Source: Eledone cirrhosa (taxonomy: Eukaryota). Taken from it: DNA of 64,000 nucleotides. Made by a program: the position numbers and the translations under genes. Below are positions 11,148-30,139 of the stretch, one piece after another. The notes beneath the pieces are model-generated. The model saw only the letters and a list, made by a program, of their open reading frames with translations. It ran no database searches and was not told the DNA's origin. The DNA lies in the NCBI GenBank assembly GCA_964016885.1, contig OZ024741.1, forward strand, positions 147,436,001-147,500,000, read 5' to 3'. Numbering within the stretch: the stretch's first letter is position 1; each line of letters starts with the position of its first letter.

Positions 11148-12110
<963 letters not shown>

Positions 12111-13597: not shown

Positions 13598-13646
13598 AAT
13601 ATGGTTTTATAAATATAGTTTCCATTTGTTAATATATATATATGTA

Positions 13647-13721
<75 letters not shown>

Positions 13722-13726
13722 ATATA

Positions 13727-13771
<45 letters not shown>

Positions 13772-13776
13772 ATATA

Positions 13777-13809
<33 letters not shown>

Positions 13810-13864
13810 ATATATGTATATATATATATATATGTATATATATGCATATATGTATACATATATG

Positions 13865-13895
<31 letters not shown>

Positions 13896-13980
13896 GTATA
13901 TATATATGTATATATATATGTATATATATATATATATATATGTGTATATATATATGTAAATATATATATATATGTGTATA

Positions 13981-16900
13981 TATATATGTGAATATAGACA
14001 TAGAATATTCGAAAATATTCTGTATGTTTATAATAAACATTTTGAAGACGTAATCGCTATAGAATAGAATACGTCACGTATTACAATTAGATTCTCGATA
14101 AAAGCAAGGGAAGTAATCTACGCGTTTCATTCTTATTAGAAATCTTCAGGACCACATATCCAGTGCTTTTATCGAGAATGACACAGCTAGAGACTTATAG
14201 AATACTTAGCTGTGTACAGGAACTGGTTTGAAAGAGCGGTTGCCGGTCCGGCAGAAATTAGAAATTGGAATAAATGCTCTGAAATAGCGATATATATGTG
14301 AATATAGACATAGAATATTCGAAAATATTCTGTATGTTTATAATAAACATTTTGAAGACCTAATCGCTATAGAATAGAATACGTCACGTATTACAATTAG
14401 ATTCTCGATAAAAGCAAGGGAAGTAATCTACGCGTTTCATTCTTATTAGAAATCTTCAGGACCACATATCCAGTGCTTTTATCGAGAATGACACAGCTAG
14501 AGACTTATAGAATACTTAGCTGTGTACAGGAACTGGTTTGAAAGAGCGGTTGCCGGTCCGGCAGAAATTAGAAATTGGAATAAATGCTCTGAAATAGCGA
14601 TATATATGTGAATATAGACATAGAATATTCGAAAATATTCTGTATGTTTATAATAAACATTTTGAAGACCTAATCGCTATAGAATAGAATACGTCACGTA
14701 TTACAATTAGATTCTCGATAAAAGCAAGGGAAGTGATCTACGCGTTTCATTCTTATTAGAAATCTTCAGGACCACATATCCAGTGCTTTTATCGAGAATG
14801 ACACAGCTAGAGACTTATAGAATACTTAGCTGTGTACAGGAACTGGTTTGAAAGAGCGGTTGCCGGTCCGGCAGAAATTAGAAATTGGAATAAATGCTCT
14901 GAAATAGCGATATATATGTGAATATAGACATAGAATATTCGAAAATATTCTGTATGTTTATAATAAACATTTTGAAGACCTAATCGCTATAGAATAGAAT
15001 ACGTCACGTATTACAATTAGATTCTCGATAAAAGCAAGGGAAGTAATCTACGCGTTTCATTCTTATTAGAAATCTTCAGGACCACATATCCAGTGCTTTT
15101 ATCGAGAATGACACAGCTAGAGACTTATAGAATACTTAGCTGTGTACAGGAACTGGGTTGCCGGTCCGGCAGAAATTAGAAATTGGAATAAATGCTCTGA
15201 AATAGCGATATATATGTGAATATAGACATAGAATATTCGAAAATATTCTGTATGTTTATAATAAACATTTTGAAGACCTAATCGCTATAGAATAGAATAC
15301 GTCACGTATTACAATTAGATTCTCGACAAAAGCAAGGGAAGTAATCTACGCGTTTCATTCTTATTAGAAATCTTCAGGACCACATATCCAGTGCTTTTAT
15401 CGAGAATGACACAGCTAGAGACTTATAGAATACTTAGCTGTGTACAGGAACTGGTTTGAAAGAGCGGTTGCCGGTCCGGCAGAAATTAGAAATTGGAATA
15501 AATGCTCTGAAATAGCGATATATATGTGAATATAGACATAGAATATTCGAAAATATTCTGTATGTTTATAATAAACATTTTGAAGACCTAATCGCTATAG
15601 AATAGAATACGTCACGTATTACAATTAGATTCTCGATAAAAGCAAGGGAAGTAATCTACGCGTTTCATTCTTATTAGAAATCTTCAGGACCACATATCCA
15701 GTGCTTTTATCGAGAATGACACAGCTAGAGACTTATAGAATACTTAGCTGTGTACAGGAACTGGTTTGAAAGAGCGGTTGCCGGTCCGGCAGAAATTAGA
15801 AATTGGAATAAATGCTCTGAAATAGCGATATATATGTGAATATAGACATAGAATATTCGAAAATATTCTGTATGTTTATAATAAACATTTTGAAGACCTA
15901 ATCGCTATAGAATAGAATACGTCACGTATTACAATTAGATTCTCGATAAAAGCAAGGGAAGTAATCTACGCGTTTCATTCTTATTAGAAATCTTCAGGAC
16001 CACATATCCAGTGCTTTTATCGAGAATGACACAGCTAGAGACTTATAGAATACTTAGCTGTGTACAGGAACTGGTTTGAAAGAGCGGTTGCCGGTCCGGC
16101 AGAAATTAGAAATTGGAATAAATGCTCTGAAATAGCGATATATATGTGAATATAGACATAGAATATTCGAAAATATTCTGTATGTTTATAATAAACATTT
16201 TGAAGACCTAATCGCTATAGAATAGAATACGTCACGTATTACAATTAGATTCTCGATAAAAGCAAGGGAAGTAATCTACGCGTTTCATTCTTATTAGAAA
16301 TCTTCAGGACCACATATCCAGTGCTTTTATCGAGAATGACACAGCTAGAGACTTATAGAATACTTAGCTGTGTACAGGAACTGGTTTGAAAGAGCGGTTG
16401 CCGGTCCGGCAGAAATTAGAAATTGGAATAAATGCTCTGAAATAGCGATATATATGTGAATATAGACATAGAATATTCGAAAATATTCTGTATGTTTATA
16501 ATAAACATTTTGAAGACCTAATCGCTATAGAATAGAATACGTCACGTATTACAATTAGATTCTCGATAAAAGCAAGGGAAGTAATCTACGCGTTTCATTC
16601 TTATTAGAAATCTTCAGGACCACATATCCAGTGCTTTTATCGAGAATGACACAGCTAGAGACTTATAGAATACTTAGCTGTGTACAGGAACTGGTTTGAA
16701 AGAGCGGTTGCCGGTCCGGCAGAAATTAGAAATTGGAATAAATGCTCTGAAATAGCGATATATATGTGAATATAGACATAGAATATTCGAAAATATTCTG
16801 TATGTTTATAATAAACATTTTGAAGACCTAATCGCTATAGAATAGAATACGTCACGTATTACAATTAGATTCTCGATAAAAGCAAGGGAAGTAATCTACG

Positions 16901-17175
16901 CGTTTCATTCTTATTAGAAATCTTCAGGACCACATATCCAGTGCTTTTATCGAGAATGACACAGCTAGAGACTTATAGAATACTTAGCTGTGTACAGGAA
17001 CTGGTTTGAAAGAGCGGTTGCCGGTCCGGCAGAAATTAGAAATTGGAATAAATGCTCTGAAATAGCGATATATATGTGAATATAGACATAGAATATTCGA
17101 AAATATTCTGTATGTTTATAATAAACATTTTGAAGACCTAATCGCTATAGAATAGAATACGTCACGTATTACAAT
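13981..17175 (-). mobile_element. Tandem array of a 310-bp hammerhead-containing unit (non-LTR retrozyme-like), 10 full copies plus a partial
   Basis: tttgaagac recurs at 14041, 14351, 14661, 14971, 15269 (after a 12-bp deletion), 15579, 15889, 16199, 16509, 16819 and 17129. Each full unit has a - strand hammerhead and there is no ORF. Confidence 0.93.
14113..14155 (-). ncRNA. Minimal type I hammerhead ribozyme (first of 10 array copies)
   Basis: GTGGTC-CTGAAGA-t ttct aata agaa t-GAAA-CGCG-TA-GATTAC. Predicted cleavage is after GUA (between 14119 and 14118). It is enclosed by the 15-bp IR ttctcgataaaagca/tgcttttatcgagaa. Confidence 0.92.
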
Positions 17176-17196
17176 TTCGATAAAAGCACTGGATAT

Positions 17197-17239
17197 GTGG
17201 TCCTGAAGATTTCTAATAAGAATGAAACGCGTAGATTAC
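17197..17239 (+). ncRNA. Inverted copy of the array hammerhead at the array/PLE junction
   Basis: gtggtc-ctgaaga-tttctaataagaat-gaaa-cgcg-ta-gattac on the + strand. The flip occurred through the enclosing IR. Confidence 0.9.
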
Positions 17240-17404
17240 TTCCCTTGCTTTAGGCCTTGTTCTTAGTTCTTTCTATTCTATTCCAAAATTTGCTCCTATA
17301 CAAGGGGCAGGTCCCATTTATGTCATTATTTACCATTTTTTCCCATTTGGTTCTGGCTCCTTTATACACTCTGATTCTATGGGAAAAAATGGTAAAAAAA
17401 AAAA

Positions 17405-18067
17405 ATGGTAAATAATGACATAAATGGGACCTGCCCCTTGTATAGGAGTAAATTTTGGAATAGAATAGAAAGAACTAAGAACAAGGCCAATAGAATAAAC
17501 TCATGGTACGATAGCAATAAATACCAGAGTGTAATGTTCATCACTACAACCCCTAGAGGCGAACTAGCCTACAAATTTAGAAGGGCCCTAAAGAAACATA
17601 ATCTCAATATTAAGATAGTAGAAAGACCTGGTACCTCTGTAAAAACACTTATTAGCAAGACATACCCGTTCCAAAGACCCTCATGTATAGATAAGAAATG
17701 TATAACCTGTAAAATAAGCCCCCATATTAACTGTAAAACTAGAAATGTAGTATATAGCATAAGATGTACTGAAGGACAATGTAGAAACAAAAATATAGTG
17801 TACATAGGTGAGACAGCTCGTAGTATAGGGGAACGAATAAATGAACACTGGCGAGACCTCCAAGATAGTAAAGAATCATCTGTGCTCTACCAACATGCTA
17901 AGATAGAACACAGGGGTAAATTAGAGAGCATAGAAATAAAAATAGAATCCACACACAAGAAAGACGCAATGTTTAGGCAAATTACAGAGGCAGTAAGCAT
18001 AAAAGAATTAAAACCAAAATTAAATAGAAAATATGAGTGGAACAGCAACATCACAACTTACAATTAA
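17405..18067 (+). CDS. PLE polyprotein C-terminal fragment: Cys-rich linker plus GIY-YIG endonuclease
   Basis: CIDKKCITC..CKTRNVVYSIRC..VYIGETARSIGERINEH..RQITEAVSIKELKPKLNRKYEW. It is 5'-truncated. Confidence 0.85.
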   Translation: MVNNDINGTCPLYRSKFWNRIERTKNKANRINSWYDSNKYQSVMFITTTPRGELAYKFRRALKKHNLNIKIVERPGTSVKTLISKTYPFQRPSCIDKKCITCKISPHINCKTRNVVYSIRCTEGQCRNKNIVYIGETARSIGERINEHWRDLQDSKESSVLYQHAKIEHRGKLESIEIKIESTHKKDAMFRQITEAVSIKELKPKLNRKYEWNSNITTYN

Positions 18068-18364
18068 GGACAAAATGAAAACACACACACACATAGAACA
18101 AACAACTTACAATTGAAAACACACACAAAATGAAAACACACACAAGACAAAATGAAAACACACACACACATAGAATAAACAACCAACCAACAATAAATAA
18201 ATAAATAAACAAACAAATATAAATAGAAAAATAGAAAAATGAACACAAACACACACAGACACCCGGATGTGGCGCATGCGCAAACTGAGCACGCAACCCA
18301 CACACAAACAAAATGGCGTAGGATAGAAGAAAGGAAAGGCACAGAAACGAAGAAAGAAATCCCC

Positions 18365-18409
18365 AGTCACTGAAGAGGTCACAGAGTGTGTGACGAAAGA
18401 ACTATGACT
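18365..18409 (+). ncRNA. Minimal type I hammerhead in PLE-A terminus
   Basis: AGTCA-CTGAAGA-g-GTCACA gagtg TGTGAC-GAAA-gaac-TA-TGACT. Confidence 0.88.
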
Positions 18410-18625
18410 ATATATATATAAACAACTATCTGGTTGTGGAACCAACCAACCAACCAGAAATTTATAAATTTGTAAATTTATAAATATATATTAAATTAAA
18501 TTGAAGTGAAAGCAACTGGTGCGTGTGTTTCTTATTGGCAACATGACCCTCCCAAAGTATAACAATATCGGTTTCAACACACGATTTCAGATAAAGAATC
18601 TTGCTAAACAAATTCAGAAACGATA

Positions 18626-18695
<70 letters not shown>

Positions 18696-18702
18696 CATAT
18701 AT

Positions 18703-18738
<36 letters not shown>

Positions 18739-18786
18739 TTACATATATATATATTTACATATATATACATATATATATGTATATAC

Positions 18787-18817
<31 letters not shown>

Positions 18818-18819
18818 CA

Positions 18820-21800
18820 TATGTCCTGGGTATGACATTAAACTACATCCAGTGGCAAGGCTCCAGTTCGGGAGTTCAGGAGATGTGGGGAATGTGGAGT
18901 TACCCCTTAGTTGTCATGACTCCCAGGTCTGCCCTGGCCCGGGGTGGTAGTACCTGTTAGGGCTCCATTTATGGGTTAAATAACTACCTTATTCGAGTGG
19001 CGCCGGTAAGGTATTGTCAGCCATTGAAAAGAAATATGGAGAGTCGATCTAACAGCACTAGGGTTAGAGCCCCTAATTACACTGTCAAGGAGCAGCCTGG
19101 TCGTTATGACTCTGCTGGCTTAGAGCCACAGAGAGGGCCAGTGGATGATGGATCAGCTGTCTCTGAGACAAATATAAAGAATGCAGTTTTGTCCTGCAGA
19201 AGAACCATCAAAATGGGCACTTTGAATGTGAGGACTATTCGAACGCTGGAGAAGAGAGAGGAGTTGGGACATCTGTTCGAGGAGAGTGGTATACAGATAC
19301 TTGCGATCCAAGAACACAGGATTCTACACGATGAGCCCGTAGGGAGTGTGATGATCGGGAGGAAGAGCCAGCTCATCACTACATCGGCAGTGAAGAACAC
19401 AACAAATGCTGCAGTAGGAGGAGTGGGTTTTGTGTTCAGTGCAAAAACCAATCTGTTGGTGAGGGAAATAATGCCTATCTCCCCACGAGTGTTGAGGGTG
19501 ACCTTCAATGGAAACCCAAGACTGACAGTCATCTCAGCCTATAGTCCAACCGAGGGGGACAGTGATGTGAATGCCGAGGAGTTCCATGAGGAGGTGTGTA
19601 GAGCTGTCAACACCACTCAGGCACACAATATCCTGCTTGTTTTGGGGGACTTCAATGCACATCTGGGTAAGGAGGGCAGTGAAGATCCTTGCTGGTACTT
19701 CCATAACAACGCCAACCGAAATGGAAGACTACTGAGAGACACCCTGCTGGAGGCGAACTTGATGGCGACCAACCTAAGGTTTAGGAAGAATCTGGGGAAG
19801 ATGTGGACCTACATCTCAGATATGCACCTGTCCAAGTCCCAGATTGATTTCATTCTGGTGAGGAAAAGTGGCGGAATAGTGTTCTGAACACGGAACCATA
19901 CAGCTATTTCAGTACACTGGGTAGTGACCACCGGCTTGTTATGAGTGAGGTCCGCGTGAGCTTAAGAAAGAGCAAGGCTCAGCCCCGGAGAACAATCTAT
20001 GACTGGGGAGCTTTCAAGGAAGATGATAAGCTACAGGAGAGGTTCACAGTGGAAGTGAGAAACAGGTTTAGTGCTCTGTGTGGAGAGTCAGAGGAGAGAG
20101 AGATTAGATGAACTGAGGAGAGTGTGACGAGGAGGTACGGGCACTTCGCCAATGCAGTGGCGAAAGCAAGTGAAACCCTGGTGCCGAGGAAAAAGAACAA
20201 AGAGAAGCACGTCAGCTCTGCAAACCCAAAAGTGTGTGCAGCCAGAGAACACCTGAAAGCTGCCAGGGACCAATTCTATGCTGATCCTACGGAGGAGAGG
20301 ATGGAGACTGTGGAGGTGATGAGGGAAGAGCTCTGTACCGCTTACACTGAGGTCAGAGAGGAGGCACTGATAGAGAAGATCAGAAGTGTGGAGAGAGCGG
20401 TTGACAGATCTGGATGTAAGGAGAGCTGGATGATCATCAACGAGATCACAGGGAGGAAGAAAAGGTGTTCGAGTCAGATCCAGGGAACGGGGCCCGAGGA
20501 TAGGAAGAGGAAATGGCTAGACCATTTTAGGACCCTACTAGGAGATCCACCCTCCACAGCCCAGAGCACTGGGGAGATCAGGCGGCTGTTTGAGGAACTG
20601 GATGTTGAGACAGAGCCCTTCACCAGAGAGGAGCTTCAGAGAGCCAAGAAGAAGATCAAGGAGGGCAAGGCTAATGGAGAAGATGGAGTGGCATCAGACG
20701 TGATGAAGAGGTGTGATTTTGATGATATCATCCTGGGGTTCTGTAACGGGGCACTGGAGAAAGGAGTTGCCCCGAATCAGTGGAGGATCAGTAACATCGT
20801 CCCAGTGCCAAAGAGGGGAGATCTCTCTAACACCAACAACTACCGGGGGATCTCACTGACGTCACTTGTGGCAAAGACCCTCAACAGGATGATTCTTAAC
20901 AGGATCCAGCCTGAGATGGAGAAGAAGCTCAGGGACAACCAGAACGGCTTCAGAGAGGGTAGATCAACCACCAGTCACATCCTGATGCTGAGGAGGATAT
21001 TAGAGGGAGCTAGAGCAAAGTGCCTTCCTGCGGTCATGGTTTTCATTGACTTTAGGAAGGCCTTTGATTCTGTGGACCGTTACTGCCTGATGAAGATCTT
21101 ACAGGCTTATGGAATCCCCAAGAGGATAGTGGACCTGATATCACTGCTCTACACCAACACCAAAGCCCAAGTCATTACACCTGATGGGATGACAGAGTTC
21201 TTTGAGATACTGGCTGGAGTGCTCCAGGGAGATACATTGGCTCCCTACCTTTTTATCATCGTAGTGGACTATTGTATGCGCCTTGCACTGGAGAAACACC
21301 AGGACTCTGGCTTTACTGTAGCACCGGCTCAGAGCAGGAGAGTTGGGGCGAAAAAGGTATCGGATGCTGAATTTGCCGACGACATAGTTTTGGTGACAAA
21401 TACAGTGAAGGAGGCAGAGGATTTGATGCGGGAGGTTGAGACTGTGTCGATGAGTGTGGGGCTGAGAATGAATGAGACTAAAACAAAATATCTGGTAGAG
21501 AATGTTGAGAAGCCAGAAGGGATCACTAATGTAGGCGGGAAGCCGCTGGAATTGGTTGAGGACTTCCTGTATTTGGGAGCAAAGATTGGGAATACGGAAG
21601 ATGATGTGGTTGAGAGGAAGAGCAAGGCCTGGGCGGCGTGTCACAGCTTGAGATCGGTGTGGAAGTCGGACCTTCGTAGAGACCTGAAAATCCGCCTCTT
21701 CATTGCTGTAGTGGAGTCTGTGCTGCTGTGTGGGTCTGAGACTTGGACACTGACCAAGAGACTCACTCAGATGGTGGATGGGTGCTACACGAGAATGCTG

Positions 21801-22140
21801 AGGATGGCTCTGAACATTAATCAGTATACACTGAGGATGAAAAACTCAGAGCTGTATGGGAGCATCCCAAAAGTCAGCTCAAAAGTGACACAGAGGAGAC
21901 TGAGGTTGGCTGGACATGCTCACCGACATCCAGAGTTGACATTGCACTCAGTGCTCCTTTGGGAGCCCCTACATGGACACACTAGAAGAGGAAGACCAAG
22001 GTTAACATATGTTGATGCCCTAAGGACAGACACTGGTCTGTTGGAGATGCAGGATATGGCAGCGATAATGAGGGACAGAGACCGCTGGAGAGAACTCGTC
22101 CATGGATCTCGGGAATTTTACCCGCCTTAGATAGATAGAT
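18820..22140 (+). mobile_element. Near full-length RTE-clade LINE
   Basis: Structured 5' leader, single APE-RT ORF and (TAGA)n tail, inserted in (TA)n. Confidence 0.9.
18997..22130 (+). pseudogene. RTE APE endonuclease + reverse transcriptase, disrupted
   Basis: APE motifs TLNVRT, IQEHR, GDFNAH, QIDFIL and SDH. RT motifs NYRGISL, QNGFR, FIDFRKAFDSV, GVLQGDTLAP and FADD. There is a frameshift near 19861-19866 and an in-frame TGA at 20109. Confidence 0.9.
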
Positions 22141-24364: not shown

Positions 24365-24587
24365 TTATTATTATTGAATGCCATGGTTGACGGAGGCTCG
24401 GCTCTGTAAGTATAGTAATTTTTAACCGTTAAAACAATTGTAAATTGTTTAAAACTTGAACCAAATTGTTGATAAAGACACCCTCCTCCTCGTGAGAGGG
24501 GTCTTTCTGTCCGTTATTTGGCCCTTCGGGGTTAAATAACCAGTTATTGGGGTTTTGTACCCAAAATTTCATTTTAAACAAAAAAAC

Positions 24588-26684
24588 ATGGCTACGAAAA
24601 AGAAATTTCATACGTCACTCCCACTCATTCCGTCTTCTTCTTCCTCAATCATCACTACAGCAGAGAGAAGATTGTCTCTCTCCCTCCCTTCTTTAAATGT
24701 GTCTCTCTCCCTCCCTTCTCTTTCGCAAGCGACGAAAGAAAAGAAAAGTCTCGTGCAAAGCGTGCAAGGTTTCTCCACGACGACGACGACAGCGACGAAA
24801 CAGGTGTGCGGGAAATACGAAAACCCAGTTCATTCGTCTGACGTCAGGAATAATAGCAGTAGCAGCCGTAATAACAACAGCAACAGTGACAATGAAAACA
24901 ACAGTAGCAGCCGCAACAGCATCACCAGCAGCATAAACAACAACAGCATTAGCAGCAGCAACACCAACAACAACCACAGCAACAGCGGCGGAGGCAGTAG
25001 TCGTAGTACCTGCAGCAACAACAAAAGTACCAGCAGCTCTGACGACAACAACAACAGCAGAGAAAAACCAATCTCATTTGCAGGTATTGCGAAAAACTTG
25101 GAAACAATCCTCATAACAAATGAGGAATTAGAGGAAGCGAAGAAGATGGTGACAAAGAACGGACACCGAGCAATCTGCAAGGCAGCGAAAAATTTTTTCG
25201 AAACCCAAGAGCACTGTACGGTCACGTACCGTACAGTAAGTACAAAATCCCGTAGGGTGGAAAGAGCCACAGAGGCCCAAATACAAAAAGCCTTGGGGTC
25301 TGTGTGGCAGAGGAAAACGCACATCACCCGAGGCAAAAAATACGCCACCGTAGACGTACTTTTTGCCACACCCCAGGAGGCCAAGGCCCAATCAGTAGTG
25401 ACCCTAAGGAGCGAGGAAATGGTGTTGGTGCCCTCCTACTGCGGGCAAAAAATTGTGAGGGTCAAACTGACCCACGTCCCCCCCGGAATGACCCCTTCTT
25501 GGCTGGCCGCGTCTGTCCTCGTCGGAATCGAGGACAAAACAACTGTACTGCAAGTACAGAAAAAAGTAAGAGAAGATTGGGTCGGCTCCTCCATTGAGAT
25601 GCTAATCCAAACCAACCAGGAGTGCATCGAAGCTATCCCGGATGTGATAGACTTCGATAACGGCACTCAACTGCCCATAAGTGTTGAGGGCAAACGCCCG
25701 AAATGCTTTCGCTGTGGATCGAAGACTCACCTCAGGGCCTTCTGCAACGAGAAGACCCTGAGAAAGGAGAAAACCCCCCTCCTTCCGAATCCGGCTCCAC
25801 GGCTACCAGCAACAGGACAAGCGGCAACCAGGAACGATAGGTCCGTGGCACCCATACCCACTCCACGGAAATCAAAGACAGCAGCAGCAGTGGAAATATT
25901 AACAACAACAACAGCAATACCAAATGCAGCTGCAACAGAGACTCCAGTGCAAACATCACCAACAACAACAAGTGAAAGAGTGGAGCTGGTACCCCTCCCC
26001 GACCTCACAGAATCAGACATGGAGTGTGAGGTGGGAGAGGGATGGCAAAAGGTCGCAAGAAGGCACAAACGCAGAAGCAGCGCATCGTCGCCTTTGAAAA
26101 GGGAGGAAAGAAATGAGAAAAGGGTAAAGTCTACTGCAAAGAGACCCACAGCAGCAACAACACCAACACCATCACCACCCACACTAGCACCACCATCACC
26201 ACCGGCGACAACCCCACCGCCAACAACACCTTCAACACCACCACCACAAGCACCAACATCGCAAACACAACAACAAAACACACACACCCAGCAACAACGA
26301 CAAGAAAATAGCAGAACCACACCCCACCCCCAGAAAAACAAATGCACGGCAATAAATACACACAACAAGAAACTAATGACTTACATAATTGAACACACAG
26401 ACATTTCACAACAGGACTACATAATACCAGCACCAATCAAAACGCCAACTAACATAAGACTGCTAAAAATAGCACAGAAACAATACACAAACATTAAAAC
26501 GAAATTCCCCAACGCAGTTGGTGATTTCAGGGACCTAGGAGGAACCATCAATCGAAGAGTATACTCAGACATTCTCTTAGAAGAGCCGACGACCAGCCGA
26601 AGGGACGATTCAACGGTCCCTTCACCAGACGATCAAGTGAAAAGGGATGTAAAAACCATCCCTCCTCTACCAAAAGTACGGTAA
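24588..26684 (+). CDS. LINE ORF1 (gag-like nucleic-acid-binding protein)
   Basis: Zinc knuckle CFRCGSKTHLRAFC, with S/N-rich and P/T-rich low-complexity regions. The first ATG is at 24588. Confidence 0.85.
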   Translation: MATKKKFHTSLPLIPSSSSSIITTAERRLSLSLPSLNVSLSLPSLSQATKEKKSLVQSVQGFSTTTTTATKQVCGKYENPVHSSDVRNNSSSSRNNNSNSDNENNSSSRNSITSSINNNSISSSNTNNNHSNSGGGSSRSTCSNNKSTSSSDDNNNSREKPISFAGIAKNLETILITNEELEEAKKMVTKNGHRAICKAAKNFFETQEHCTVTYRTVSTKSRRVERATEAQIQKALGSVWQRKTHITRGKKYATVDVLFATPQEAKAQSVVTLRSEEMVLVPSYCGQKIVRVKLTHVPPGMTPSWLAASVLVGIEDKTTVLQVQKKVREDWVGSSIEMLIQTNQECIEAIPDVIDFDNGTQLPISVEGKRPKCFRCGSKTHLRAFCNEKTLRKEKTPLLPNPAPRLPATGQAATRNDRSVAPIPTPRKSKTAAAVEILTTTTAIPNAAATETPVQTSPTTTSERVELVPLPDLTESDMECEVGEGWQKVARRHKRRSSASSPLKREERNEKRVKSTAKRPTAATTPTPSPPTLAPPSPPATTPPPTTPSTPPPQAPTSQTQQQNTHTQQQRQENSRTTPHPQKNKCTAINTHNKKLMTYIIEHTDISQQDYIIPAPIKTPTNIRLLKIAQKQYTNIKTKFPNAVGDFRDLGGTINRRVYSDILLEEPTTSRRDDSTVPSPDDQVKRDVKTIPPLPKVR

Positions 26685-26719
26685 GTGGTCTTTCCCATCT
26701 TTTCCACTCTATTTTAAAC

Positions 26720-29700
26720 ATGACCTCACTCAGAATAGGCAGCATAAATGCGCGTGGCTTGGGGTCGTCATGGAAGCAGGGTCACCTGCTCAACGACCTC
26801 AGGTCACTAAACATAGATGTAGTGGCCATCAGCGAGACCAGAATCTCCGAAGCACGGGCCTTCGTACCGATCTTCGGCGGCTACGATGTGTACGCATCTC
26901 CCAGCCGTCCTGGATCGGGTGGAGGAGTTGCTGTGCTTTTTCGGAGAGGTTTGGATCTCGCCATACGGGCCATCTTCCTGGACCCAGAGGGTAAGCTGGT
27001 GGTGCTGGACGTGACCAGCGGAGACGGGCAAGCTTTCAGGCTAGTGGCCGTCTATGCCCCGACAGGAGCAGGGCGGCCTGATTTCTTCCGGCGTCTGGAG
27101 ACCTTTCTTGGAACGTCCCGCTCTTTAGTGTTAGTGGGCGACTGGAACGGGATCTTAGATGCACGCTGGGACTGTGTGGGATTAGCGGATAGGGGTGGAG
27201 GGTGCAAGAGCCTCACCAACCTGCTCAGGCGTTTTGAACTGTCTGACAGGTACCGATTGGATTTCCCGAATGTGCCAATGTGGACTTGGACAAACCGCAT
27301 AGGGTCATCCAGATCATATCTAGATAGAGTATTTTGTAGGGAAATAGATAGGTCTAGCATAGGCTGTCCACAATTCAAGATAGTCAGCTACACGGACCAC
27401 AAATTCGTGATCTGTGTGCTTGACTTAGATAGGCTTCATAGACGAGGACCCGGCTACTGGAAGCTAAACGCGTCCTTACCAGCGCGCAAGGCCTACAGAG
27501 ACCGGATTAGCGAACTAGTTAAGCGGGCGTTGACGGGGGCCATCGTCAACAACAAGTGGTGGTTTGCTCTGAAAAGAGCGATTAGAATAGAATCGATTAG
27601 GTTTAGTAAGGCTTTAGCAATAGAGAAAAATAGAGCAGAGGGAGAACTAGTTAGAAAATTAGACGAGGCGCTTAGCAAAGGCATTGCGACCGACGTGCTT
27701 GCGGCGAAATTGGCCCTTGACCAATTCTTCAATGCAAAGCACGAAGGCTGCGTTGTCAGAGCTAGGGTGCGTGCTCTCAGACACGAGGGGACGAAAGCCG
27801 TTCAATGGGCCCGAGTGGCGGAGGCGCGTCGTGGCAACAAAGCCACGATCCGGTCTTTGGTGGACCACGACGGGCGCATGCTACTCGATCCCGGGCAAAT
27901 GTGTGAAGCTTTTCAGCGACACTTCGCTCAGCTGTTCGGGGGCAGCGGGGGGCCGGGTAGAGGGATGGACTTTAGTGTCTACCTCGACGGACTGCCGCGG
28001 CTCTCGGCCACTGAGGCGAAGTGTTGCGAAAAGCCGATAACAGCCGCTGAAGTAAGGGAGGCAATGACTGGCTGCACAAGGGGTAAATCGCCTGGTTTGA
28101 ATGGTCTGCCCTATGAACTTTACGTACAGATGCCAGACTTGTTCGGAGGCCTCTTGGCGGACGTCTACTGCAACTGGCAACAGAACGGGAGAATTCCCAG
28201 TTCTGTGAGCCGAGGAGCGGTGGCACTGCTGAGAAAGGATCCGAACAAGGGGGATAATATAGACAATTTCCGGCCCATAACTCTGCTAAACACAGAGTTT
28301 AAGATTTTGGCCAAGGTGCTAGCAAAGAGGTTGGCGCTTGTCGTTGGTGGTCTGGTGGGAGAGGCGCAGACATGCGCCATTCCCGACAGATCCATCCACG
28401 ACAACCTCCACCTCATGCGATACATCGTAGAGAGGGTAGCTAGGGAACCTGGCACGGGTGGGTCCTTGATCAATTTAGATCAGTCGAAAGCTTTCGATAG
28501 GGTCGACCATCGTTACCTAGCGGCAGTCCTGAGGGCGGCTGGCTTTGGGCCCGTCTTCAGAGGCTGGATCGCTGCCATGCACAGCGACATCTGCTCTGTG
28601 GTGAGAGTGAACGGTCACCTGTCGGAACCGTTCAACATCATGCGCTCGGTCCGCCAAGGATGTCCCCTCTCGTCCCTCTTGTACGTATTGACTCTCGAGC
28701 CATTACTGCACAAACTGGAGACGTTGAGGGGGGTCCCGCGCGAACTAGGATGCGGAAGATCCGTATCAGCATATGCGGACGATGTCACCGTAGTGGTGTC
28801 GAACGCCAAACACATCGAGGCGATCGGCACTACACTAAGAGAATACGAAGCGGTGACAGGAGCAATGATCAACCAGGAAAAGTCAGTGGGCCTGCAGCTC
28901 GGCACCTGGAGAGGCAGGTCCATGCCGTCCAACAGCGTCGTCGGACGCTGGACGGACGGACCGGTTAAATTGCTAGGGGTCTGGTTCGGTCCGGACCTCC
29001 AGACGGACAAAAACTGGGACGAGGTGACGAGCAGGGTGGCTTCTCTCACCCAGAAATGGGCCGAGAGGAAGCTATCCCTGAAAGGTCGAGCGGAGGTGGC
29101 TAACGCGTACATCGCGTCCGTCATCTGCTACCGCCTGACCGTCGTACCTTGTCCTAAGCCTCGCCTGACTGTGCTGGAGCGTTTGCTCTTTCGCTTTTTG
29201 TGGAAGGGACGCGCTCCGATGGTCAGGCGGTCCATCTGTTGTCAACACCCGCTACGTGGAGGGCTGGGCATGCCGTGGCTGATGATGCGCAGGCACGCGC
29301 TCAGGCTACGACATCTCCACCTCTTCCTCGACGGTGATCAGGTGTGGTCGCCGTTTGCTAGACGCGTGTTTCCCCAGCTCGTTTCCTTGACGGAGCTGCA
29401 GTCCTGGGTCAAGCGAAGACCGAGAGGGAGCGCCTGGAGACTGGAATGTCTTCAGGCGCTCACAGCCCTCGACCAATCGGGCAATGTGATCGGTGGAAAC
29501 TCCACCTCGGCGTTCTATAGAGGATTAGTGGAGGGGAAGAGCGACGACGTACTTGGGGAAACTCTAGGCGTCGACGAAAATCAACTAGCCAATCTCTTCG
29601 GAAGAACTTTCGGGCCAGGGCCTATGGACAACTTCCAGAAATCTCTGGCCTGGCAGTGCTACCGAGGAGCCTTGCCAGTTCGGGATAAACTCTACAGGCA

Positions 29701-30139
29701 TGGAGGTGCCGTCAGTCGGGCATGTCCGAGATGCGCGCAGGGCGACGAAACCGTCCTGCACGCACTCGTCCAGTGTCCGAAAATTGCTGACTTGTGGGTT
29801 TATGTCGAACACCTGCTGTCGCGTTTAGGACGGATCCGGCTATCATCTGAGTCCATCGTGAGGATTGCCCCGCCCTCCTCCTTTAGCCGGGAAGGGCAGG
29901 CAGTTTTTATCTGCCTGGTGGCCATGGCGAAAGAGATAGTATGGTGGACACGTTTGAAAGGGCTGAAGACGAGCACTTACCTCTTCGGTGATGCTCTGAT
30001 TGACTTTTTCAAATTTCATTTGAAAAGGAAAATCAGACTAGAGAGGGAAGTGCTCTCTTCCCAGCATTTTGTTGAAAGATGGGTGAGAGAAGCAAGAATG
30101 GCCCGAGTGAATGGGCCTACTCTGAGCATATATCTGTAA
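26720..30139 (+). CDS. LINE ORF2: APE endonuclease, reverse transcriptase, C-terminal zinc finger
   Basis: SINARGL, ISET, GDWN, YLDR, TDH; YWKLNAS; NFRPITLLN, LDQSKAFDRV, VRQGCPLS, YADD; CPRC..ETVLHALVQC. 1139 aa with no stops. Confidence 0.95.
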   Translation: MTSLRIGSINARGLGSSWKQGHLLNDLRSLNIDVVAISETRISEARAFVPIFGGYDVYASPSRPGSGGGVAVLFRRGLDLAIRAIFLDPEGKLVVLDVTSGDGQAFRLVAVYAPTGAGRPDFFRRLETFLGTSRSLVLVGDWNGILDARWDCVGLADRGGGCKSLTNLLRRFELSDRYRLDFPNVPMWTWTNRIGSSRSYLDRVFCREIDRSSIGCPQFKIVSYTDHKFVICVLDLDRLHRRGPGYWKLNASLPARKAYRDRISELVKRALTGAIVNNKWWFALKRAIRIESIRFSKALAIEKNRAEGELVRKLDEALSKGIATDVLAAKLALDQFFNAKHEGCVVRARVRALRHEGTKAVQWARVAEARRGNKATIRSLVDHDGRMLLDPGQMCEAFQRHFAQLFGGSGGPGRGMDFSVYLDGLPRLSATEAKCCEKPITAAEVREAMTGCTRGKSPGLNGLPYELYVQMPDLFGGLLADVYCNWQQNGRIPSSVSRGAVALLRKDPNKGDNIDNFRPITLLNTEFKILAKVLAKRLALVVGGLVGEAQTCAIPDRSIHDNLHLMRYIVERVAREPGTGGSLINLDQSKAFDRVDHRYLAAVLRAAGFGPVFRGWIAAMHSDICSVVRVNGHLSEPFNIMRSVRQGCPLSSLLYVLTLEPLLHKLETLRGVPRELGCGRSVSAYADDVTVVVSNAKHIEAIGTTLREYEAVTGAMINQEKSVGLQLGTWRGRSMPSNSVVGRWTDGPVKLLGVWFGPDLQTDKNWDEVTSRVASLTQKWAERKLSLKGRAEVANAYIASVICYRLTVVPCPKPRLTVLERLLFRFLWKGRAPMVRRSICCQHPLRGGLGMPWLMMRRHALRLRHLHLFLDGDQVWSPFARRVFPQLVSLTELQSWVKRRPRGSAWRLECLQALTALDQSGNVIGGNSTSAFYRGLVEGKSDDVLGETLGVDENQLANLFGRTFGPGPMDNFQKSLAWQCYRGALPVRDKLYRHGGAVSRACPRCAQGDETVLHALVQCPKIADLWVYVEHLLSRLGRIRLSSESIVRIAPPSSFSREGQAVFICLVAMAKEIVWWTRLKGLKTSTYLFGDALIDFFKFHLKRKIRLEREVLSSQHFVERWVREARMARVNGPTLSIYL

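Follow-up and report, generated by a model that had tools for sequence, protein, structure and literature searches.

The window, the entire stretch of 64,000 nucleotides analysed here, contains a block in which an array of a short hammerhead-bearing unit, termed RZ-A, and a young copy of the Penelope-like element (PLE) PLE-A are set back to back with zero spacer. Tandem-repeat analysis identifies (TA)n target microsatellites at 13632..13987 on the left and 18623..18822 on the right, and there is no (TA)n within the block between 13987 and 18623. From left to right, the order is (TA)n, approximately 10.3 RZ-A units on the minus strand, a 75-nt inverted RZ-A piece, a single A, a 128-nt inverted PLE-A piece, 1.24 kb of forward PLE-A and (TA)n. 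The layout that the initial annotation described at 17160..17500 is thereby reproduced, with coordinates within 1-2 nt, as is its statement that (TA)n flanks the entire block. A search of the whole 3.0-Gb assembly found this junction pattern a single time.

The RZ-A main arm (13980..17176, hammerhead sense on the minus strand) is a tandem array with a period of 310 nt, about 10.3-10.4 copies and 98% matches, and its units differ by three substitutions and one 12-nt deletion. Its outer (left) end coincides with the short end of the family at unit position 310, and its inner end, which falls on unit position 202, is separated by 3 nt from a 16-bp stem. The inverted piece (17177..17251, plus strand) comprises unit positions 115-189, is identical in sequence to the array units and has both its ends within the arms of this stem; all three RZ-A breakpoints in the window (202, 115 and 189) are thus located in or at the stem. 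The piece harbours a type I hammerhead core on the plus strand (CUGAAGA, 17203-17209; GAAA, 17224-17227) with a predicted cut after 17233. The initial annotation let the array flip through its own 15-bp inverted repeat; the inverted hammerhead at 17177-17251 is indeed present, but the repeat measures 16 bp, and at the flip either 6 nt were dropped or the join is blunt and falls 3 nt short of the stem.

The adjoining A (17252..17252) stems from neither parent and is either a non-templated base or a last trace of the target. It is followed by the inverted PLE-A piece (17253..17380, minus strand, 128 nt), which matches other young copies exactly and spans positions -1054 to -1181, numbered from the next ATG in a unit of 4,297 nt. 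As described initially, inverted PLE-A is joined here with no microsatellite between and the forward element comes next; yet the piece is internal ORF sequence straddling the start of the forward arm, not the 5' segment of the element. The central join lacks microhomology. The 5'-truncated main arm of PLE-A (17379..18622, plus strand, about -1153 to +80) starts with 2 nt common to the inverted piece, followed by a short stutter, and carries five private substitutions in 1,218 nt. It includes an ORF remnant of 223 amino acids (17396..18067, plus strand) with a CX4CxxC linker and a GIY-YIG endonuclease domain (E=1e-4), which corresponds to the C-terminal end of P0001, an open frame of 1,312 aa at locus L098. 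Further downstream on the plus strand, the 3' region of PLE-A contains a minimal type I hammerhead motif (18365..18409), its core motifs and stems read off the sequence. The element closes with a 54-nt tail (18569..18622, plus strand), which extends from the short end (+26) to the tail end (+80) and lies within the beginning of the following ORF.

Judged from its sequence, RZ-A appears to be a non-LTR-type retrozyme with a candidate self-cleaving motif and a putative circular RNA. Its 310-nt unit contains one type I hammerhead on the minus strand inside the 16-bp stem; the core motifs and stems I, II and III, the last of them short and palindromic, were read from sequence and folds, and the unit folds much better than its shuffles (z = -5.1). 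An Rfam scan returned no family reaching the gathering score, and the hammerhead call is based on core motifs and stems. No ORF of 120 aa occurs within the array. In keeping with non-LTR retrozymes, RZ-A consists of non-coding tandem units in the range of approximately 170-400 nt, has one type I hammerhead per unit and is dispersed by retrotransposition, as reflected by fixed outer and scattered inner ends. A genome search revealed at least 510 short ends and at least 1,006 tail ends placed exactly against TA, and the units in the window are 100% identical to copies on other chromosomes. At 11350-12110 the window also contains an older RZ-A relative, 321 nt long and about 78% alike, which is likewise two-armed in TA. 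Two more abundant short hammerhead families, found at L189-L219 with 2,431 and 3,023 first-look candidates, form small two-armed units in TA with one long and one short end.

The family was sampled at 159 stretches, 23 near top-scoring arrays, 96 near the first listed short ends and 40 near tail ends. These yielded 164 blocks, a few of which are halves or duplicates of one insertion, and represent part of the at least 510 short and at least 1,006 tail ends; the sampling, of this family as of the PLEs below, is biased toward young copies and toward contigs C1 and C2. In an RZ-A insertion, two arms of opposite orientation meet at their 5' ends, and (TA)n borders each arm on its outer side. One arm terminates at the short end and the other at a tail end about 26 nt past unit position 310, and this pairing is found in 118 of the 123 two-armed blocks for which both ends are visible, a strong result that constitutes a Penelope footprint. 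PLE-A arms end at +26 and +80 from the ATG and are also paired as short and tail, PLE-C pairs its ends with a tail of about 50-56 nt, and a 466-nt retrozyme follows the same rule. At most RZ-A centres there are 0-4 nt of microhomology, and the inner ends are scattered across the unit. Arm ends fall at the hammerhead stem in 44 of 270 cases compared with 34 expected, only a slight enrichment, and stem-to-stem centres account for 3/135.

Both arms of an RZ-A insertion share one haplotype in 112 of 113 two-armed blocks, compared with a discordance of 83% between loci, and thus one template normally serves both arms. PLE-A arms similarly have 30 non-majority sites in common. The sole two-armed RZ-A block with arms that differ at a polymorphic site (L266:476-4494) carries the variant in four units of one arm and is a candidate two-template insertion. 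In one arm at L177:534-6031, units 6 and 12 share four linked variants and units 7 and 13 share a fifth, and two of these five are present in the other arm too; the pattern fits a six-unit circular template read repeatedly, or a later six-unit duplication. Mirror variants were considered as proof that one arm is DNA-copied from the other, but only 4 of 133 RZ-A variants occur in both arms, which is not decisive. The C/G interruptions in the flanking TA follow no consistent polarity rule.

Published hallmarks of PLEs include TA targeting, a tail on one side only and an adjoining copy that is inverted and 5'-truncated (Craig et al. 2021, PMC8557442). A Penelope-type protein was reported to nick both target strands in vitro and to extend them from two start sites, the interval between which corresponds to the tail; a dimer is predicted (PMC11167929). 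The two arms, the short and tail ends and the TA target of RZ-A, taken together with these hallmarks, indicate that RZ-A is very probably inserted by PLE proteins. Regarding PLE mobilisation of the retrozyme, the family-wide end signature represents better evidence than the window junction, for which the term “direct evidence” was an overstatement.

PLE-A itself is classified from its motifs as an EN+ Penelope-like element with a Neptune/Nematis-type linker. The 4,297-nt unit encodes P0001 with DKSG, YVDD and CX4CxxC motifs in a single ORF that combines a reverse transcriptase (RT) with a C-terminal GIY-YIG domain; Pfam gave no RT match on the full frame, and the RT assignment is based on DKSG and YVDD. 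Partial tandems, an inverted 5'-truncated arm, a one-sided tail and a hammerhead complete the hallmarks of EN+ PLEs. The linker motif is located at residue 1186, and two cysteines lie between the GIY and YIG equivalents, a Neptune/Nematis feature. PLEs of the Hydra clade are described as having DKT and RWK motifs, no CCHH and a CxCX5C linker (PMC8557442), whereas P0001 has neither DKT nor RWK and shows CX4CxxC instead. P0001 residues ~295-430 (L098:2214-6149) form an asparagine/threonine-rich low-complexity stretch, which resembles the N-rich inserts described for rotifer Penelope elements (PMC3846280).

The PLE-A sample comprises the 38 loci nearest to the window copy and 17 insertions in 3.3-kb views, many of the latter only partly in view, out of at least 2,397 tail ends; for PLE-C, a second active family, 30 views were sampled. 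The window copy is 99.6% identical to its nearest relatives. Its two arms start 28-39 nt apart, and in 10 of 34 other centres the starts are also within 60 nt. Close-starting arms are found among L091, L093, L095, L108, L111, L120, L124, L125, L127 and L128, and some inverted arms start internally; such starts may be a record of fold-back or internal priming. At L091, L128 and L295, TA adjoins a short inverted PLE-A piece of internal origin. Elsewhere in the window, an older two-armed copy of the PLE-A family (44870-46140, 87%) has a left arm with a tail end and a right arm cut off without TA, and a decayed second PLE family (54227-56840) retains GIY-YIG and a degenerate hammerhead with TA at its end. 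Two elements of LINE type, both encoding endonuclease and RT domains, are located at 18961-22130, beginning about 140 nt to the right of the TA of the block, and at 24540-30139.

How the two elements became fused can be read in two principal ways, and we lean slightly towards one co-integration event of retrozyme and PLE-A. In this scheme, a Penelope-type protein would prime reverse transcription at both ends of one (TA)n break, on two RNAs. The left DNA end would prime about ten rounds of retrozyme unit copying from the short start site, and the right DNA end would prime PLE-A from the tail start site. The left product would stall at the 16-bp hammerhead stem, where a strand switch would invert the 75-nt loop piece; it would then gain one A, copy 128 nt of PLE-A RNA from an internal site and finally be end-joined to the right arm through the two shared bases. 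The initial annotation had attributed the junction to an RT that jumped between two RNAs. As a sole cause this fails, since jumping yields segments of the same polarity only, whereas on each strand of the window block segments of cDNA polarity alternate with segments of RNA polarity. RNA-to-RNA jumping alone is therefore insufficient, and hairpin-guided inversion or pre-existing double-stranded DNA is needed too. At the join, the sense-polarity 75-nt piece intervenes between the two RNA-derived segments; if it is read as a loop inverted within the stem, the underlying join is one of retrozyme cDNA to PLE cDNA plus one A, that is, a template switch.

Several observations support co-integration, and this part of the original proposal, a single integration, is the one that stands with a slight advantage over a rival nearly as good. 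The outer ends of the block are an RZ-A short end and a PLE-A tail end, and the pairing rule is thus kept across two families. Both partners belong to the youngest layer. Moreover, the join is free of TA, whereas a PLE-A-family copy within 300 nt of an RZ-A block, found at 9 of the 164 blocks, is always separated from it by TA (9/9).

Similar joins occur at three further loci (L092, L107 and L234), all of them TA-free, head to head, with short and tail outer ends and partners of similar age. At L092:3607-7327 a young arm of the 466-nt retrozyme with a short end is linked via 3 nt of microhomology to a 179-nt PLE-A piece and a PLE-A tail arm; the retrozyme units show one difference in 1,318 nt and PLE-A three private changes in 2,232 nt, and the locus is a cleaner candidate for a template switch than the window block. 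L107:627-3776 comprises a PLE-A tail arm, a 24-nt inverted piece and a related retrozyme arm that stops at the short-end position, on AT-rich DNA rather than on a microsatellite. At L092 and L107 alike, retrozyme and PLE-A are connected in one polarity via one short piece, as expected of a same-polarity template switch. Finally, at L234:897-2853 a PLE-C tail arm lies head to head with a short arm of a PLE-A subfamily, with TA outside both, 2 nt of microhomology at the join and each partner about 98-99% identical to its nearest copies; this is a candidate mixed-arm insertion of two autonomous families. It is about an even bet that Penelope complexes can write two RNAs, one per break end, and that the window block, L092, L107 and L234 are mixed-arm insertions amounting to about 1% of events.

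Other features count against one mixed event. Single-template arms are the norm, as documented by the 112/113 RZ-A blocks and the shared PLE-A sites. The expected enrichment of junctions between RZ-A and PLE-A is absent: there are no further fusions among the 164 other RZ-A blocks or the 55 other PLE-A insertions. Taken singly, each half of the window block also resembles an ordinary insertion centre, with stem-to-stem joins on the one side and short inverted pieces such as those at L091, L128 and L295 on the other. Four segments recur in 1/164 RZ-A blocks (L251:1218-5951), where a head-to-head centre was copied twice, and a hammerhead loop inversion like that in the window was found in none of about 1,290 other RZ-A units.

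The main rival, to which we assign a somewhat less than even probability, holds that two successive insertions into the same (TA)n were followed by loss of the intervening TA and of the outer parts of the inner arms. For this, roughly 1.08 kb of PLE-A and no fewer than 147 nt of retrozyme must have disappeared, through target resection as the second element inserted or through deletion at a later time within the PLE-A palindrome, which is near-perfect and 1.2 kb long. (TA)n is the target of both families, and one of the nine PLE-A-family neighbours, at L286, is 99.3% identical; such very young neighbours are scarce (1/164), however, which speaks against this route. Joins to finished or older neighbours that lack TA, or nearly so, are known: at L102 12 nt were lost from the older element, and similar joins are present at L172 and L117/L221. 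L102 and L172 had been considered as chimeras and were rejected, since the partners are finished older two-armed insertions. Foreign TA-free joins are found at 6 of 38 PLE-A loci (L092, L093, L096, L102, L107 and L117). The sequential joins at L102, L172 and L117 and the mixed joins at L092, L107 and L234 thus provide examples of both routes in this genome.

Two insertions would further predict four segments with two normal-looking centres, as seen, and the small distance between the PLE-A starts is ordinary for this element. From the at least 1,006 RZ-A and at least 2,397 PLE-A tail ends, we infer by a rough product that about 0.05-0.3 such fusions are to be expected. The PLE-A part may also be older: five private substitutions are counted over its 1,346 nt and three over the 3,272 nt of the retrozyme (P=0.052), which hints weakly at insertion of PLE-A before the retrozyme. 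Counts between co-inserted arms are not overdispersed for RZ-A (P=0.27) but nearly so for PLE-A (P=0.054), which weakens the imbalance. At the same time, the mutation counts oppose the commonest version of the rival, with PLE-A inserted second. Sequential insertion needs a chance breakpoint inside a 16-nt stem arm (about 6%), leaves a central join without microhomology and predicts complementary outer ends in half of the cases; such ends are seen in four of four mixed joins, for which random neighbour fusion would give a chance of 1 in 16. By a rough estimate, co-integration and the sequential route differ in likelihood by no more than a factor of two or three.

An assembly mis-join between two repeat copies is highly improbable. 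Such repeats do break assemblies, N gaps occur at some sister loci, and no junction-spanning piece was present among 24 of about 2,770 short-read contig pieces from three runs, perhaps of other individuals; on 16900-17700 these runs contain both families at very high depth. The block lacks N, however, its ends follow a biological rule, and a collapsed repeat is hard to reconcile with the five private PLE-A substitutions and the array variants specific to single units. Equally improbable is copying of the whole block from a fused donor locus via read-through RNA: PLE terminal repeats are described as able to carry unrelated sequence in trans (PMC3846280), but the junction is found once in the assembly, and the main arms are opposite in polarity, so that one RNA cannot template both. 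Even jointly, mis-join and fused donor account for only a very small share of the probability.

Co-integration, even if true, would place both RNAs at one break and would not make the PLE-A protein the usual carrier of RZ-A. PLE-A is not shown to be the specific helper; its designation as such in the initial annotation went too far, given that nothing links RZ-A to PLE-A over another active PLE family. RZ-A does not resemble the ends of PLE-A, PLE-B and PLE-C beyond the level of shuffled sequence (11, 88 and 19 of 200 shuffles as high, respectively; positive control 0/200), and at about 26 nt its tail is about half as long as the 54-nt tail of PLE-A. PLE-C was considered as a parent of RZ-A and rejected: the 64% match downstream of PLE-C at L117, which looked like pLTR homology, comes from a decayed relative of RZ-A that has become fused into a PLE-C 3' region lacking part of its length, and other PLE-C copies carry a different end.

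With these findings, retrozyme mobilisation by PLEs, proposed since 2020, gains a countable footprint of two arms, two fixed starts, a TA target and one template. The single window locus is ambiguous, and the mixed-arm class is a testable extension of the proposed mechanism. If mixed-arm insertions are real, retrozyme and PLE RNA would have been captured in the same integration event at the sequence level, and the class would bear on the origin of the unexplained inverted PLE structure. If instead two insertions account for the block, it serves as a warning that TA-targeting elements become fused frequently enough to mimic template switches.

Comparable structures are known from L1 elements, where twin priming by internal priming generates a short inverted piece and an RNA jump generates U6-L1 chimeras, the latter of one polarity and with one 3' end. 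The window block differs in having two outward 3' ends and alternating polarity. A literature search, with subscription journals and preprint supplements outside its scope, found no report of retrozyme-PLE junctions or two-armed retrozyme insertions.

For animal retrozymes, PLEs have been proposed as the mobiliser on account of shared hammerheads, co-occurrence and pLTR homology (Cervera and de la Pena 2020, PMC7229834; Li, Clavereau and Pollet 2026, bioRxiv 10.64898/2026.07.22.740005). Like RZ-A, the metazoan non-LTR retrozymes of these papers are non-coding tandem units with one type I hammerhead each, form many dispersed arrays and reside in hosts with active PLEs. Unlike for RZ-A, the text consulted mentions neither two-armed insertions nor fixed ends nor mixed junctions, and while pLTR homology is argued there, RZ-A has no detectable similarity to the ends of three PLE families. 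The EN+ PLEs, as far as described in PMC8557442, share with PLE-A a single ORF, RT motifs, GIY-YIG, CX4CxxC, a 3' hammerhead, partial tandems and a (TA)n target. Their tail is given as 30-40 nt, whereas that of PLE-A is 54 nt; its open frame, at 1,312 aa, is long and includes an asparagine-rich stretch, and the inverted arm of the window block is mostly another element. The closest biochemical parallel is PAc in vitro (Frangieh et al. 2024, PMC11167929), for which, in the portion of the study consulted, the tail is set by two start sites close to the beginning of the ORF and both strands are nicked and extended, as appears to be the case here; PAc was used with the RNA of the element itself, whereas the event proposed for the window block would involve a non-autonomous RNA and two templates.
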